DNA of 61,961 nt from Clostridiales bacterium (GTDB lineage Bacteria > Bacillota > Clostridia > Christensenellales > UBA1242), in the NCBI GenBank assembly GCA_015055535.1, contig SVIA01000006.1, positions 1 to 61,961 of the forward strand, written 5' to 3'. This document shows positions 26,143 through 31,348 of the stretch, one piece after another. The position numbers and the translations under genes are program-made. Every line of letters begins with the position of its first letter. Within the stretch, counting starts at the first letter, position 1. Below the pieces are notes generated by a model. That model was given only the letters and a program-made list of their open reading frames with translations. It did no database searches and was not told the DNA's origin.

Positions 26143-26694
26143 TTAACTAAAATTAAATTTTTCTTTTATAATTTGTGCAACCTTTTCAGCTGGTAAATTT
26201 GTATTGTCTATTTTAATATAATTTTTAAAAGGTATTTCGTTTTCATGGCTTTCTAATCTAAATGTATTTTCATATTCCATTAGTTTTCTAGAAAAATTAA
26301 TATCTTTTTTACTTGCTTTATTATTTCTACGGTTTTCCGTTTCGTTTCTTTGAAATCTAACCTTTTCATCTGCAACAAGTTCTACACAATAAATATCTGC
26401 ACCCTCTTTTTCAAAGATATTGCAAATTCTTTCAACATTTTCCCATTCTTCTTTTAAATCAAAGGCCCAAATAAAGGTAAAAATCAAACCATAATTTTTA
26501 CTTTTTGCAAAATTAGTAAAAACACTGTTTCTAAAATCTTGTACAACTGCTTCTTCTCGATAACCAAAAATTTCAATAACTGGCTCTATTGACATATGAT
26601 TATGAAACAATTTAAAATCTGTAATTTTACAAAGTTCTTGCCCTACCGTCATTTTTCCAACAGCGCCACTACCACATAATAATAAAAGTTTCAT
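26143..26694 (-). CDS. P-loop small-molecule kinase (shikimate/NMP-kinase-like)
   Basis: GSGAVGKMT Walker A, LFHNH, RNETENR lid, IDNT. Confidence 0.8.
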   Translation of the reverse strand: MKLLLLCGSGAVGKMTVGQELCKITDFKLFHNHMSIEPVIEIFGYREEAVVQDFRNSVFTNFAKSKNYGLIFTFIWAFDLKEEWENVERICNIFEKEGADIYCVELVADEKVRFQRNETENRRNNKASKKDINFSRKLMEYENTFRLESHENEIPFKNYIKIDNTNLPAEKVAQIIKEKFNFS

Positions 26695-26719
26695 TTTTTG
26701 TTACCTCTTTTATGTTTTT

Positions 26720-28084
26720 TTAAAATAAGATTTCATCGTTTTTTGAATATTTAATATTATAAATTTCACTAGAATTAACCCTAATAACTTTACCAACTTT
26801 TGTTGTAAAATATTCATTGTCAAAAACAATCCATATAACTTTCTTTTTTAAATTTTCTGGCGATTCATATACCATATCTTTTCCATCAGTGAAAACTATT
26901 TTGTTTATTTTTTTATCTCGTGAAAAACAATTTAACGCCATATTAAAACTTGTTCCACCACCGCCTTTCAAGTTCAATTTATCTATATCACTTGATTTCT
27001 TAATTTCACTAAACCCATAAAATCTCGTATCGAAGCAACCAACATATAATTTTGATTCCTTTAAAAGTGGTTTTAATTGTTTTAAAAAATTTCTTAATAA
27101 TGATTCATTTACTGAACCACTTGTATCTAACATAACCTCAGTTACCGGTCTTTCATTCACTTCTAAACTTTCTATTCTTGCCTGAAAATCATTTTCATCA
27201 CTGCTTCTTCTATAGCTCCATCTGTCGTCTTCTTTTTCAATTTCTTCTCTTAATATTTTTTTCCATGAAATTATAGGTTTTGCTTTACCTACTTCTCCCA
27301 AGGTAAAATTTTTATCACCCTCACCAGAGCCAGCTATTTGCGTTTTTTCTTTTTCTTTTTTTAATCTATCACGAATTTCTTGACCAATTTTTTCTTTTAA
27401 CTCTTTATTAGCTTTAGTAAATTCTTTTTCAGCCCTACAAACTTTTTCATTATAATTACTTTGATTTTGACTATTTTCTTGATTATCTTCATCATTTTGT
27501 TTATTGTTTTTAGTATCTTCTTCATTTTGATTTTTATCTTGATTTAGTCCATGTTGATCTTTTGTTTTTTTCTCATGTTTTTCTAATTTTTCGATAATTT
27601 CTTTCCAAATATTATGATCATCGTGACCCGCATTTGTAAATTCTTCTTCTGAATTTTGATCTTGATTTTTATTATTCTTTTTATCTTTTAAAAGTTTTTG
27701 ATACATTTCTTCGGCAGATTTATTTATTGCTTCTTTTATATCAACTCCACCATCAATCATAGGTAGTTTTTCAGCAATTAACATTTGATTAATAACAGAA
27801 TCTGTCGCAATGTTCCAAACATATTGATCTTTATTTTTACTTCTTAAAATATGATCAAACGCAACATGCATAATTTCATGAGCGAATATAAAAGTTTTTT
27901 GATCATTAGTTAAATTGTCAATATATTTTTTATTATACAAAACAACTTCTCCATTTGTTGAAGCTGTTGTTATTTTTCTTGATTTTTTAAAATCAAGATT
28001 TGCCATAACCGAACCCAGCAATGGAAATTTTATTAAAATGTTAGATTTAACATTTTCAATCATTTGAATATCTTCTTTTTTCAT
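26720..28084 (-). CDS. DUF2201-type HExxH metallopeptidase-like domain fused to vWA
   Basis: TASTNG, FAHEIMH, low-complexity linker, MIDAS DTSGS, GGGTSF, FTDG. Confidence 0.88.
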   Translation of the reverse strand: MKKEDIQMIENVKSNILIKFPLLGSVMANLDFKKSRKITTASTNGEVVLYNKKYIDNLTNDQKTFIFAHEIMHVAFDHILRSKNKDQYVWNIATDSVINQMLIAEKLPMIDGGVDIKEAINKSAEEMYQKLLKDKKNNKNQDQNSEEEFTNAGHDDHNIWKEIIEKLEKHEKKTKDQHGLNQDKNQNEEDTKNNKQNDEDNQENSQNQSNYNEKVCRAEKEFTKANKELKEKIGQEIRDRLKKEKEKTQIAGSGEGDKNFTLGEVGKAKPIISWKKILREEIEKEDDRWSYRRSSDENDFQARIESLEVNERPVTEVMLDTSGSVNESLLRNFLKQLKPLLKESKLYVGCFDTRFYGFSEIKKSSDIDKLNLKGGGGTSFNMALNCFSRDKKINKIVFTDGKDMVYESPENLKKKVIWIVFDNEYFTTKVGKVIRVNSSEIYNIKYSKNDEILF

Positions 28085-28087
28085 TAA

Positions 28088-28765: not shown

Positions 28766-31282
28766 TTATCTTTCTTTAAAGGATTCTTCTATTGTTGTTT
28801 TATAGATGTTTTTAGTATTTGTGTACTTACTTAAATCAACTTCAGAAAAATCATAGATTGTCATATTATATTCTTGTGCAAATTGTGCAAATTTGGTGTC
28901 GGAATACAATCCATTATTAAAAAATATTACCCCCGAACCATAGTATTTTATTATTTTTTCAAATTCATTTTTATCTTTATAACTGATTTTGTTCGACCAT
29001 TTTTTCCCCATTTTATCAAAAACTTCACATAAAATTTTTGCTTGTTCCATATTATTACAGTAAATTCCTGTTTTGTCTTTAAGTTTCCAAAATTCATCAA
29101 CTGTAATTTTGTAACTAGACTTTTGACCATTAGAATTTTCATTTTCATGAGAATTTAAATTTTGATTTTTTTGAGATTTTAAATTTCCATTTTTAATTAA
29201 GTTATCAATTAAAATTGCTCTTTCGTTATCTTCTCCAATCCAAACAGAATCAAACATTGCTGTAATTTCTGAACCAAGTTCTTTTTTCACAAACTCACGT
29301 ACTACTGATATTTCTTCATCACTTGCACTTTTTAAACTTAATGCTAAAGCATATTTTGCATCAAATGTTGTTGGTATTTCATGCGCTTCATAATTTCCTT
29401 CTAATACATCTTCAATTGTTATTTGTGTAGTTTTAGCAAATGCAATAAACGATGCTGCTATTTCTTTACCAACTTTGTTTTCTATTAATTCTTTTGCAAT
29501 AACTCCATCGTTATCGTAAATAATATCGCTTATTTGTTCCCAACCACGTGGATCTATTGCATATTTTGGTGGTTCTTCGCTGTTATAATTTGAATAAAAC
29601 ACTTTATCGCCCATTGTACTTACAAATGCACTTACTAATGGATGAACTTTTAATCTGTCTTCACCTTTACTGCTTGGTTCGCTTCCCCACTCTAACCAGT
29701 TTGTTAAATCTAAATCTAAATACACATGACCATCAAATCTTCTAAATAATGGCTCGGGCATATTATACGCCGCTTCACTTTCTTCTTTACTATTTCCAGC
29801 AGCTACTACTACAACATTTTCTGGTAATTTTCCAACATTCGGTCCAATTGAATTGTTTAGCACTAAATGGAATACTAAACTTTGTTCAGTTGGTCTTACA
29901 TTTGTAATTTCATCTATAAATAATACATGCTTTTTTGTTGGCTCTTTTTCACATTTTTCACATAACGCTGTATACCATGCTGGTGGTACCCAAACTCCCG
30001 TTTTTGTTGTATCGTTATTTGGATATATTGTTTTACCTATTACTTCTTCAGGAAGTATACCATTTCTTAAAACTATTGATACAAAATCTGGATCTGCTTC
30101 TTCTATTCTTCTTGTTTTTCCTATACCACTTACACCATGTAACATAAATGATTTTCCAGCTTTAATATAAAAGTCTATTTGCTCATTTACCAGCATAGGT
30201 TTATCAACTACTTTTACTCCATAACCCTTTCTAGTTTTTTTATCCACTTTTGTATTCTCCTTATAAATTTCTTTATTAAAAGCTTCGCTTAAAAAATTAT
30301 TTGTATCTTTAAAATTTCCACCATTTGATGCTGTAAATTTTGTATTACCATTAGTTTTAATGTTATTAACGTTAATTCCATTTAAATATCCTCTAATAGT
30401 ACTATTTTGCCACATCAAACGATTTTTATCTTCATTATTTGGATAAAATGGCATTGCCATAATTGCATCTTCTGTTATAACATCTATAAACTCTGCTTTT
30501 CCTTTTCCATATGGATTTATTTCTTTTGGCATATCATCCCAATTTCGAATTTTCCATGTTATTGGTTCTACTTTTATCCATACATATTCATTGTTAATCA
30601 CTTCAGAACCATCAGAATATAAACTTTTATCACTACAATTTGCTTTTACACGAACATACTTATCGCCATTGTATTCATATTCTTCATAATACTTTTGTTC
30701 AGATGAATTAATAAATGCAGTATATTTTTTACCAGTTGGTTTTATAACATTAATTCTTGAATTTTTATATAATTTTTCAAAGTCGGAATTGATTTTTTCA
30801 CCAACAAAAGTTTTGGGATATTCGCCAAATTTAATTACATAGTAAGCTGTATCATAATAATTATCGTTTATAGCTATTACTTTAAAATTTTCTTTTAAAT
30901 CTTTTTTTATTAATGAAATATCAAGTCGCATTTTTGGACGAACGCCAAAATTACGCAAAACATAATCATAACAATAATTCACTTCTATTGATACATAATG
31001 CACAAATTTATTTGAATCACTTGAACGCAACCAAAATGGTATACGACTACTTTTACCATTAACAGTAACCGCTTCTCGAGCTCCAGCACCTCCATTTGCC
31101 AGTGCCCAATCAGTAGCAGGAGCATAACGATAATTTTCATTTTTAGATTCATTATCAAACTCATCCAATGATTCAATATATATTAGGTCTGTAGTATTAA
31201 ATTTCACATCACGCATTTCACTATTGTTATCACTGTTTCGTAAAGCAATTGGAATTATACTATTTAAATCAATTTTTGACAT
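28766..31282 (-). CDS. DUF6273-like domain fused to a MoxR-type AAA+ ATPase and a C-terminal repeat domain
   Basis: ATDWA, FWLRS...GVRP, FGEYP, VEPITW, WQNSTIRGYLN; Walker A GVSGIGKT, Walker B VLFIDEI, AAGN, PLFRRF, DPRGWE. Confidence 0.85.
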   Translation of the reverse strand: MSKIDLNSIIPIALRNSDNNSEMRDVKFNTTDLIYIESLDEFDNESKNENYRYAPATDWALANGGAGAREAVTVNGKSSRIPFWLRSSDSNKFVHYVSIEVNYCYDYVLRNFGVRPKMRLDISLIKKDLKENFKVIAINDNYYDTAYYVIKFGEYPKTFVGEKINSDFEKLYKNSRINVIKPTGKKYTAFINSSEQKYYEEYEYNGDKYVRVKANCSDKSLYSDGSEVINNEYVWIKVEPITWKIRNWDDMPKEINPYGKGKAEFIDVITEDAIMAMPFYPNNEDKNRLMWQNSTIRGYLNGINVNNIKTNGNTKFTASNGGNFKDTNNFLSEAFNKEIYKENTKVDKKTRKGYGVKVVDKPMLVNEQIDFYIKAGKSFMLHGVSGIGKTRRIEEADPDFVSIVLRNGILPEEVIGKTIYPNNDTTKTGVWVPPAWYTALCEKCEKEPTKKHVLFIDEITNVRPTEQSLVFHLVLNNSIGPNVGKLPENVVVVAAGNSKEESEAAYNMPEPLFRRFDGHVYLDLDLTNWLEWGSEPSSKGEDRLKVHPLVSAFVSTMGDKVFYSNYNSEEPPKYAIDPRGWEQISDIIYDNDGVIAKELIENKVGKEIAASFIAFAKTTQITIEDVLEGNYEAHEIPTTFDAKYALALSLKSASDEEISVVREFVKKELGSEITAMFDSVWIGEDNERAILIDNLIKNGNLKSQKNQNLNSHENENSNGQKSSYKITVDEFWKLKDKTGIYCNNMEQAKILCEVFDKMGKKWSNKISYKDKNEFEKIIKYYGSGVIFFNNGLYSDTKFAQFAQEYNMTIYDFSEVDLSKYTNTKNIYKTTIEESFKER

Positions 31283-31300
31283 TTTCTCTCCTTTAAAAGC

Positions 31301-31348
31301 TATATCATGATAATGTTATATTATATCATGGTAATTTTATAAAGTCAA
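31301..31348 (-). promoter_or_regulatory. Sigma-A promoter overlapped by a 21-bp imperfect tandem repeat
   Basis: TTGACT-17-TGaTATAAT; repeats TATATCATGATAATGTTATAT and TATATCATGGTAATTTTATAA on the plus strand. Confidence 0.7.

Follow-up and report, generated by a model that had tools for sequence, protein, structure and literature searches.

The 61,961-nucleotide stretch of DNA analysed here (the window) covers positions 1-61,961 of the forward strand of contig SVIA01000006.1 from a Clostridiales bacterium (Christensenellales; UBA1242; assembly GCA_015055535.1). Our focus is the segment at 26,143-31,348, where a sensor-ATPase with a MoxR-like AAA+ module, a small AAA+-like protein and a DUF2201 protein joining an HExxH peptidase to a vWA domain are encoded one after another on the reverse strand. 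With a probability of about 55%, we read this locus as a member of an undescribed family of three-gene recognition or conflict modules found in gut Bacillota with small genomes, a variant of the MoxR-vWA theme whose copy in the window lacks a diversity-generating retroelement (DGR). The observations behind this reading are the domain identities, the triad, its insertion, its patchy and multi-copy distribution, and the targeting of its N-terminal domain by DGRs in relatives. The parts of the module are as follows.

28766-31282, reverse strand: sensor-ATPase of 838 residues, consisting of the N-terminal domain (N-domain), the MoxR-like AAA+ module and a C-terminal domain
30263-31282, reverse strand: N-terminal DUF6273-like (C-type-lectin-like) domain, about residues 1-340, placed by Pfam and a fold model
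30926-31036, reverse strand: equivalent of a DGR variable region, ATPase residues 83-119, from a WLRS to a GVRP motif, placed by alignment to the variable region of a related locus (L068)
29183-30220, reverse strand: AAA+ module with lid and helical extension, residues 355-700, placed by a family alignment with invariant GxSGxGK, DE, N and R
28769-29125, reverse strand: C-terminal domain with no function assigned, about residues 720-838, present in 31 of 121 aligned homologues
28088-28495, reverse strand: small protein of 135 residues, an AAA+ core without a P-loop, the third conserved component
26720-28084, reverse strand: DUF2201 protein of 454 residues, HExxH peptidase, linker and vWA domain

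The conserved triad and its diversified input domain

Related loci were collected by scanning species-representative genomes with the AAA module and were annotated with hidden Markov models, giving 78 loci, nearly all from gut metagenome-assembled genomes (MAGs) labelled Clostridia, Bacilli or Tenericutes. The ATPase, small and vWA genes are found together in 45 of them, mostly in that order (three have small-ATPase-vWA or small-vWA-ATPase); another three lack only the small gene, and the other 30 have the ATPase alone, some bounded by contig ends and many belonging to one clade with several copies per MAG. No kinase or phosphoesterase gene, both of which lie next to the module in the window, appears in any of the 78, and the conserved unit is therefore the triad. 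An earlier interpretation made from the letters alone (the sequence-only reading) had proposed gene-order conservation and swapping of N-terminal domains as checks on a conflict system, and both hold, with N- and C-terminal domains exchanged between members. Within a set of 41 relative genomes that includes the window's own, the ATPase is matched in 14, the vWA protein in 10, the small protein in nine and the kinase-like protein in three, and all nine genomes with the small gene have the vWA gene beside it. The module is thus patchy (14/41 for the ATPase) and variable in location, and within the genus its proteins are 35-54% identical, compared to 71-92% for the flanking infC, L20 and EngB.

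The strongest indication of what the module does comes from its neighbours. When 483 flanking open reading frames (ORFs) were clustered, the most recurrent was an RVT_1 reverse transcriptase (RT; 3e-16), found at 10 loci and usually immediately upstream, followed by a bAvd-like protein at eight; RT and/or bAvd homologues occur at 11 of the 78 loci. At eight loci (L044, L068, L069, L084, L096, L100, L102 and L104) an Avd gene, a template repeat (TR) and an RT gene lie directly upstream of the ATPase gene, and the 80-120 nt repeat flanked by Avd and RT has a counterpart, the variable region (VR), within the 5′ part of the ATPase gene. Mismatches between TR and VR fall at template adenines in 20/24, 23/28, 14/16, 16/17, 11/12, 11/12, 11/14 and 17/20 cases at these eight loci, an adenine bias that is the signature of a DGR. 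The VR of L068 (residues 81-119) aligns to residues 83-119 of the window ATPase, where column entropy is among the highest in the N-domain alignment. The proposal that the N-domain is a ligand sensor is strongly supported by the presence of a DGR variable region within it at eight related loci, and a sensor role is, on these comparisons, well supported.

A quick maximum-likelihood tree built from 88 AAA modules distributes the DGR-linked members over at least five distinct subclades, and the window copy lies within a 10-member subclade without an adjacent DGR, in which the vWA gene is adjacent in 8/10 members, seven of these also having the small gene. The window is AT-rich (about 25% G+C) and belongs to a 95%-complete genome of 0.94 Mb in 28 contigs. 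This genome contains no PF00078 match and no template-like repeat of the N-domain DNA; because it has no reverse transcriptase, we class the window copy as a DGR-less member of the family. Fast divergence, arrays of stand-alone N-domains and swapping of the N- and C-terminal domains would provide diversification in the absence of a DGR, and we count them towards a recognition module. Three of the DGR-linked copies (L044 7131-9086, L069 6883-9038 and L100 7054-9287) have an ATPase frame interrupted at or near the VR, which could reflect either an artefact of consensus building from a hypervariable population or genes that the mutagenesis itself has inactivated. Reads from four fecal DNA runs yielded pieces of contig that were short, of low depth and identical to the window, together with many spurious AT-rich matches, and are uninformative on variation and expression; among the sequencing runs listed as containing this DNA there was none of RNA.

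The family also contains many variant arrangements, including ATPases without the N-domain, one to four copies of the C-terminal domain, duplicated AAA modules and tandem ATPases. For instance, three loci (L037, L041 and L043; about 700-11400) have the order vWA, N, N, small, ATPase, ATPase, N, N, in which four stand-alone N-domain paralogues (about 310-415 residues) flank two ATPases; these paralogues may be alternative sensors, decoys or recombination cassettes. A clade of 23 AAA modules (L042-L063, L081 and L095) is made up of orphan sensor-ATPases that have neither a small nor a vWA gene within 8 kb and occur in several copies per MAG, three MAGs, for example, having at least four loci each. 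Polypeptides with two AAA modules and no DUF6273-like domain are seen in L065 (281-2737), L073 (946-3687) and L099 (7182-9239), and 2-4 C-terminal-domain repeats come after an N-terminal AAA module in L036, L038 and L040. Two AAA modules that are 52-56% identical to that of the window (L039 and L044) come from MAGs titled Proteobacteria and Alphaproteobacteria, which could be due to mis-binning or to horizontal transfer. One relative genome (G020) has a small/vWA pair (L016; C14 58440-60067) with no detectable ATPase in the roughly 2.8 kb upstream to the contig end, and ATPase-like genes elsewhere, one of them with three in-frame TAA stops.

Components of the module

The N-domain had been described as DUF6273-like, and the match is there (PF19789, ATPase residues 29-121, E-value 6.2e-5), though its 23.3 bits fall just below the cut-off of 23.5 and it is confined to the profile's C-terminal half (positions 80-171 of 172). 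Many ATPase homologues carry a precomputed PF19789 match, and the AlphaFold2 model of the domain has a pLDDT of 84.6 and a pTM of 0.88. The best viral fold match of this model is a DUF6273 protein (E-value 6.3e-4), with low TM-scores of 0.23/0.30. A conserved WQNSxIRxYLNG block lies near residues 291-335 of the window ATPase, and residues 295-359 of a stand-alone N-domain paralogue weakly match DUF6273 profile positions 31-70. The two matching stretches are about 170 beta-rich residues apart with the C-terminal half of the profile coming first, and this order and spacing suggest a DUF6273 domain that is circularly permuted or interrupted by a large insertion. In three reports, DUF6273 is described as a C-type-lectin-like DGR target with its VR at the C-terminus, found in receptor-binding proteins of gut phages (PMC10743442, PMC11792537, bioRxiv 2024.10.15.618418); the position of the VR in the ATPase N-domain agrees with that placement at the C-terminal end of DUF6273. 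None of the three module proteins has a transmembrane segment (maximum Kyte-Doolittle hydropathy at most 1.09, compared to 2.12 for a TM2-domain control), and since no hydrophobic segment is present the N-domain is presumably cytoplasmic. A secreted or surface adhesin was considered and dismissed, there being no signal or transmembrane segment.

The ATPase motor was predicted to be intact, and both its motifs and a nine-member alignment bear this out. Walker A (GVSGIGKT) lies at residue 383, Walker B (VLFIDE) at 453 and the RRF of the Arg finger at 514, and the G, S, G, G, K, D, E, N (sensor 1) and R (finger) columns are invariant across nine family members. The window ATPase nevertheless scores below the Pfam gathering cut-offs (AAA_3, 22 vs 27 bits; AAA_5, 18.3 vs 22 bits), the latter of which is passed by three family members (L073, 54.3 bits; L099, 48.9; L083, 28.3), and bpMoxR (PF20030) gives only sub-threshold matches in two relatives. 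The closest profile is that of a phage family, phrog_1297, which matches residues 366-665 at 1.9e-37. Homologues number 511 at an E-value of at most 1e-3 among 8000 scored candidates; a PDB sequence search with the ATPase returned one match, at chance level. The C-terminal domain, repeated up to four times in the variants L036, L038 and L040, has no Pfam family, and an Atlas search with it gave no feature match and weak structural neighbours only (phage and Bacillota hypothetical proteins, TM-scores 0.48-0.57).

The small protein was proposed to be a degenerate AAA, which was borne out, and it proves in addition to be a conserved component of the module. With a 21-member profile, its residues 51-118 align to ATPase residues 427-499, from before Walker B to sensor 1 (hhalign probability 93.9%, E-value 1.5e-7). 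Its AlphaFold2 model (pLDDT 91) has 159 PDB matches at an E-value of at most 1e-3, every listed one an AAA+ protein, including dynein, RFC, Lon and NorQ bound to the VWA domain of NorD (PDB ID: 9qh9). There is no Walker A, family members have K, N, E or G where the Walker B Glu would be, and no conserved equivalent of the Arg finger is found. Given the profile alignment, the AAA+ fold and the absence of Walker A, catalytic Glu and Arg finger, the small protein is a pseudo-ATPase derived from the family of the sensor-ATPase itself. The family has 302 representatives at an E-value of at most 1e-3 among 1.84 billion proteins, and as the best 150 of these are all at most 195 residues long, none of the 150 is fused to the ATPase or the vWA protein. 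Complex prediction of the AAA module and the vWA protein with the small protein as partner gave 0.74, 0.72 and 0.74, with controls of 0.00 and 0.00 for an unrelated partner and 0.78 when an unrelated protein took the place of the vWA chain; with no verdict from these values, we use them as evidence neither for nor against binding.

The third protein was correctly recognised from its letters as an HExxH-vWA protein encoded 3 nt downstream of the small gene, and here the Pfam matches are strong (DUF2201_N, PF13203, 101.4 bits vs a cut-off of 23.2, E-value 8.6e-29; DUF2201, PF09967, 48.1 vs 26.4, E-value 1.5e-12). The 454-residue chain consists of a peptidase domain (residues 1 to about 125), a charged low-complexity linker and a MIDAS vWA domain (residues 310-440 approximately), with HEIMH at residue 69 and DTSGS at 320. 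Across 19 DUF2201 sequences H69, E70, H73, H78, D320, S322, S324 and D400 show no variation, and at least 90% of the sequences keep T378. Like the ATPase, the protein matches a phage family (phrog_1314, 1.8e-63), and a PDB sequence search with it gave only the minigluzincin MJ1213, weakly (E-value 0.012). NCBIfam holds nothing meaningful for the three module proteins or the kinase-like protein, and no equivalog match.

An insertion upstream of infC and its cargo

The surroundings of the module in the window are as follows.

32476-33051, reverse strand: EngB, ORF
32018-32473, reverse strand: TM2-domain protein, ORF
31412-32008, reverse strand: calcineurin-like phosphoesterase of 198 residues (Metallophos, 2.1e-8)
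31398-31423, reverse strand (31423 to 31398): terminator-like hairpin of the phosphoesterase gene, lying before the promoter-like site of the ATPase gene
31320-31348, reverse strand: promoter-like site preceding the ATPase gene, TTGACT, 17 nt, TATAAT, with TG, 11/12 matches
28496-28765, reverse strand: 270 nt separating the ATPase gene from the small gene, containing two promoter-like sites (28713-28685 and 28698-28669, each 10/12)
26143-26694, reverse strand: kinase-like P-loop protein of 183 residues, with sub-threshold AAA_33 and AAA_18 matches
from 25950, reverse strand: infC, with GTG listed as the start

The sequence-only reading had four co-oriented ORFs inserted upstream of infC, with gaps of 3 nt between the small and vWA genes and of 25 nt between the vWA and kinase genes. 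The orientation and both gaps are confirmed, and so is the insertion; the inserted segment, however, holds five genes rather than four, as the phosphoesterase belongs to it. The TM2 gene adjoins infC in all four congeners compared (G002, G004, G006 and G008), at a distance of 290-620 nt, with EngB and the downstream ribosomal genes keeping their order around the junction, and in the window about 6 kb separates the two genes. On this comparison the block and the phosphoesterase gene upstream of it are an insertion. All ORFs are open under translation table 11, and genetic code 4 was dismissed for that reason.

Neither of the two outer genes of the inserted segment belongs to the conserved module. 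The 183-residue protein had been called a P-loop kinase and placed in the system; the gene is indeed 25 nt downstream, but its P-loop (GSGAVGKM) is non-canonical and every Pfam match is sub-threshold, and sequence search finds no relative in the PDB. That it is an integral fourth component, acting as effector or regulator, would fit its orientation and proximity and the absence of a terminator-like site between it and the vWA gene. This is largely refuted by its distribution, as it is adjacent to the module in none of the 78 related loci and in none of the nine congeneric or family loci examined, and its homologues (42-45% identity) occur in only 2/40 relative genomes, on contigs other than those of their modules. 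We consider a four-gene system highly improbable, and the kinase-like gene is best regarded as cargo of the inserted segment. A similar picture emerges for the phosphoesterase, which is absent from the TM2-infC junction in 4/4 congeners and from all 78 module loci, and has homologues in 2/5 congeners on contigs other than those of infC and the modules; it lies within the insertion without being a conserved part of the module.

Transcription from one promoter had also been proposed. The best promoter-like site does precede the ATPase gene, and it is no more than a candidate because the region as a whole holds 48 such sites compared to 44.9 expected from shuffled controls, i.e. not above chance. 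Given the 270-nt gap, with its two further promoter-like sites, a single transcription unit is possible and not established. This gap contains no Rfam match, and a Shine-Dalgarno-like AAGGAG lies upstream of the small gene. The sole match in an Rfam scan of the region is an L20-leader-like element (RF00558) at 25916-26033 on the reverse strand, which scores 48.8 bits against a gathering cut-off of 58.7 (E-value 2.1e-7) and overlaps the beginning of the infC ORF as listed; infC itself probably begins downstream of the GTG at 25950. Despite the insertion upstream, infC retains this element and a promoter-like site of its own.

Proposed function, alternatives and known systems

A DGR aimed at the N-domain points to a role in molecular recognition, probably an immune one. 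To our knowledge, DGRs are the only known means of targeted protein hypermutation in prokaryotes, and the functions of their cellular targets are largely unknown. The considerations in favour of defence are the insertion, the patchiness, the multiple copies, the fast divergence, the domain swapping and, above all, the DGR acting on the input domain, to which we add, by analogy, the parallel with the DGR-linked vWA-MoxR-VMAP conflict systems. The immune role, the ligand and the steps that follow binding are what we infer, the steps by drawing on what is known of MoxR-vWA machines. In such a scheme, the N-domain would bind a specific intracellular ligand at about residues 83-119, most likely a phage or other mobile-element protein, and binding would alter the assembly of the AAA+ ring or its ATPase cycle and so gate the ring. 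The ring would engage the MIDAS vWA domain, as MoxR ATPases do with vWA partners, and the tethered HExxH peptidase would thereby be activated or positioned and would cleave the ligand itself or a target in the host. Having none of the catalytic residues, the pseudo-ATPase would be purely structural, as a non-hydrolysing ring subunit, a cap, an adaptor or a brake.

A bolder version, which we offer as speculation and think fairly unlikely, makes the triad a programmable intracellular antigen receptor joined to a degradation machine, where the motor passes a captured foreign protein to the vWA-tethered metalloprotease and the pseudo-ATPase sets the threshold. If true, it would be a split, retargetable functional analogue of FtsH, with a binding domain varied by a DGR or by arrays of paralogues, and would give bacteria of about 1 Mb genome size an adaptive-like form of immunity.

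Several results weigh against a recognition or conflict module. A DGR-type RT was found neither in the window genome nor in any of the 24 family-level relatives, and hypermutation is therefore inoperative at the window copy. In PADLOC-DB v2 the ATPase, small and kinase-like proteins have no match and the vWA protein has one insignificant match, to AbiLii (E-value 0.0046), leaving nothing meaningful for the four proteins. Defence-island enrichment, which the sequence-only reading had also suggested looking for, did not appear either: among the 133 nearest neighbours of 48 vWA-bearing loci, a scan with no background control, the commonest Pfam families besides RT were housekeeping ones, with no defence-island or integrase signal, and apart from RVT_1 the flanks are housekeeping. 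The 25 PADLOC models matched by most members of this set are all reverse-transcriptase models, with 5-7 members each, consistent with the same RTs. The lectin fold of the N-domain is likewise a tentative assignment, drawing on a sub-threshold Pfam match, one low-TM viral Foldseek match and the literature, and a Foldseek search of its model against the PDB found no match at an E-value of at most 1e-3. Finally, the nearest relatives characterised even by prediction are phage pairs, for which a role in virion assembly, rather than in defence, has been proposed.

The alternative that follows from these phage relatives is that the module is a domesticated chaperone or maturation pair of phage type, which assembles or processes some structure of the cell or of a resident element, using the N-domain as a client adaptor and having no part in immunity. 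Besides the matches to phrog_1297 and phrog_1314, 183 phage records match the ATPase (over the AAA module only) and 365 the DUF2201 protein; the two genes lie close together in N4-like, rV5-like and PA5oct-like phages, and both are present in 67 of 80 viral loci, in most of which the DUF2201 gene is directly downstream of the ATPase gene. For the jumbo-phage pair of ATPase and peptidase-vWA protein, Iyer et al. 2021 (PMC7824862) propose virion assembly and proteolytic processing, and cite the case of MoxR-vWA tail assembly in Acidianus two-tailed virus; the housekeeping flanks of the cellular loci would also suit such a role. The viral ATPases are, however, only about 365-390 residues long and 26-31% identical to the window AAA module, and all 80 loci are without the N-domain, the C-terminal domain and the stand-alone small protein; among 11 small ORFs neighbouring an ATPase or vWA gene in phages 4MG, phiA41 and Paride, no homologue of the small protein was found either. 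Nor are the cellular loci prophages: a prophage location was dismissed because the flanks are housekeeping genes, with no recurrent phage structural genes and 263/342 flank clusters being singletons. A DGR on a client-binding domain, multi-copy arrays and fast divergence would be unusual for a chaperone with a fixed client, and we consider this alternative somewhat unlikely. The cellular triad itself is a derived form of the phage pair.

The logic of an active AAA+ protein with a vWA-MIDAS partner is also that of the chaperones that insert metals or cofactors into metabolic enzymes (NorQ/NorD, CbbQ/CbbO and the Mg-chelatase BchI/BchD type), and the small protein's fold matches include the NorQ-NorD VWA structure (9qh9). 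No recurrent enzyme neighbour or NCBIfam equivalog accompanies the module, its distribution is patchy and its location variable, and such systems have no counterpart of the HExxH peptidase or of the lectin-like domain diversified by DGRs, which leaves a metal chaperone with very little chance of being right. The window copy could instead be a decaying relic that lost its function along with its DGR, as the absence of RT and template repeat from the genome, the interrupted frames near the VR of three DGR-linked loci and the 270-nt ATPase-small gap (roughly 10-70 nt in most relatives) might suggest. Yet its three ORFs are intact with all catalytic motifs conserved, and the entire 10-member subclade is without an adjacent DGR while keeping the vWA gene in eight members and the small gene too in seven. 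Target genes without a DGR are reported to be retained in phages as well (bioRxiv 2024.10.15.618418), and a relic is in our view very unlikely.

A recognition module of this kind would matter on several counts. The three-gene family wires a diversified domain directly to an ATPase and a protease, and makes the role of a cytoplasmic DGR target after binding testable. It ties the widespread, uncharacterised pair of ATPase and DUF2201 protein, known from N4-like, rV5-like and jumbo phages, to a derived cellular form whose input domain can be recognised, and this could illuminate the function of both, and it adds a candidate immune or recognition module for gut Bacillota with reduced genomes, where defence catalogues find nothing at the locus. 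ATPase-fused targets may already be listed in the supplementary data of Kaur et al. 2020 and Doré et al. 2024, or in catalogues of DGR targets such as that of Roux et al. 2021.

When compared with known systems, the module resembles the arrangement of Mg-chelatase BchI/BchD, with an active AAA+ ring, an inactive AAA+ and a MIDAS vWA domain attached via a charged linker. It differs from the BchD type in that the inactive AAA is a separate 135-residue protein, unfused to the vWA domain in the best 150 of 302 representatives, and from both BchI/BchD and NorQ/NorD, the latter a fold neighbour of the small protein through NorQ bound to the NorD VWA domain (9qh9), in having a peptidase and a sensor domain and no associated metalloenzyme.

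The sequence-only reading knew of no description of this architecture, and here it was partly right. The pair of ATPase and peptidase-vWA protein is already known, having been noted by Iyer et al. 2021 (PMC7824862) for jumbo phages; we found no description of the sensor-fused triad, and the open-access main texts searched mention no DGR target fused to a MoxR-type ATPase and no pseudo-AAA component or DUF2201 protein in such a system. The phage pair (PHROGs 1297 and 1314) shares with the module the homologous ATPase family and the DUF2201_N/DUF2201 protein, encoded by adjacent, co-oriented genes, and is without the DUF6273-like domain at the N terminus, the C-terminal domain and the stand-alone pseudo-AAA in 80/80 viral loci, the last being absent from three annotated phage neighbourhoods as well; no DGR was noted at these loci, where no systematic search for one was made.

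The DUF6273 DGR targets of gut phages (tentaclins, Mtd-like; PMC10743442, PMC11792537) are similar in a different respect. They belong to the same Pfam family, have the VR at the C-terminal end of the profile and likewise come with Avd, TR and RT cassettes and adenine-specific mutagenesis. Those proteins are described as receptor-binding or decoration proteins of the virion with Ig-like domains, whereas here the domain heads a presumably cytoplasmic AAA+ ATPase at cellular loci, and the order of its matching segments suggests, unlike that of the phage targets, a permuted or interrupted domain.

A further parallel is with the vWA-MoxR-VMAP systems (Kaur, Burroughs, Iyer and Aravind 2020, PMC7159879; DGR-linked versions in Doré et al. 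2024, PMC10907252), which likewise combine a MoxR-type ATPase, a vWA protein and a peptidase; a MoxR ATPase beside a vWA-MIDAS protein is what we find here as well. Their DGR-linked versions also use recognition by a DGR-diversified lectin fold, with sensors predicted to be cytoplasmic and variable domains that diversify. No VMAP family is among the Pfam matches of the four window proteins, the completeness of VMAP models in our copy of Pfam being unchecked. The lectin-like domain is fused to the vWA protein in those systems and to the ATPase here, the HExxH peptidase is fused here to the vWA domain with no separate trypsin-like or caspase-like VMAP, and the third component here is a pseudo-AAA rather than a protein with a VMAP C-terminal domain. 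The hosts differ too, being unicellular gut Bacillota of about 1 Mb here and multicellular cyanobacteria, actinobacteria or Chromatiales there. In DGR-diversified lectin-fold sensors that work with MoxR and vWA proteins (PMC7159879, bioRxiv 2023.09.22.558884), the module has a conceptual precedent.

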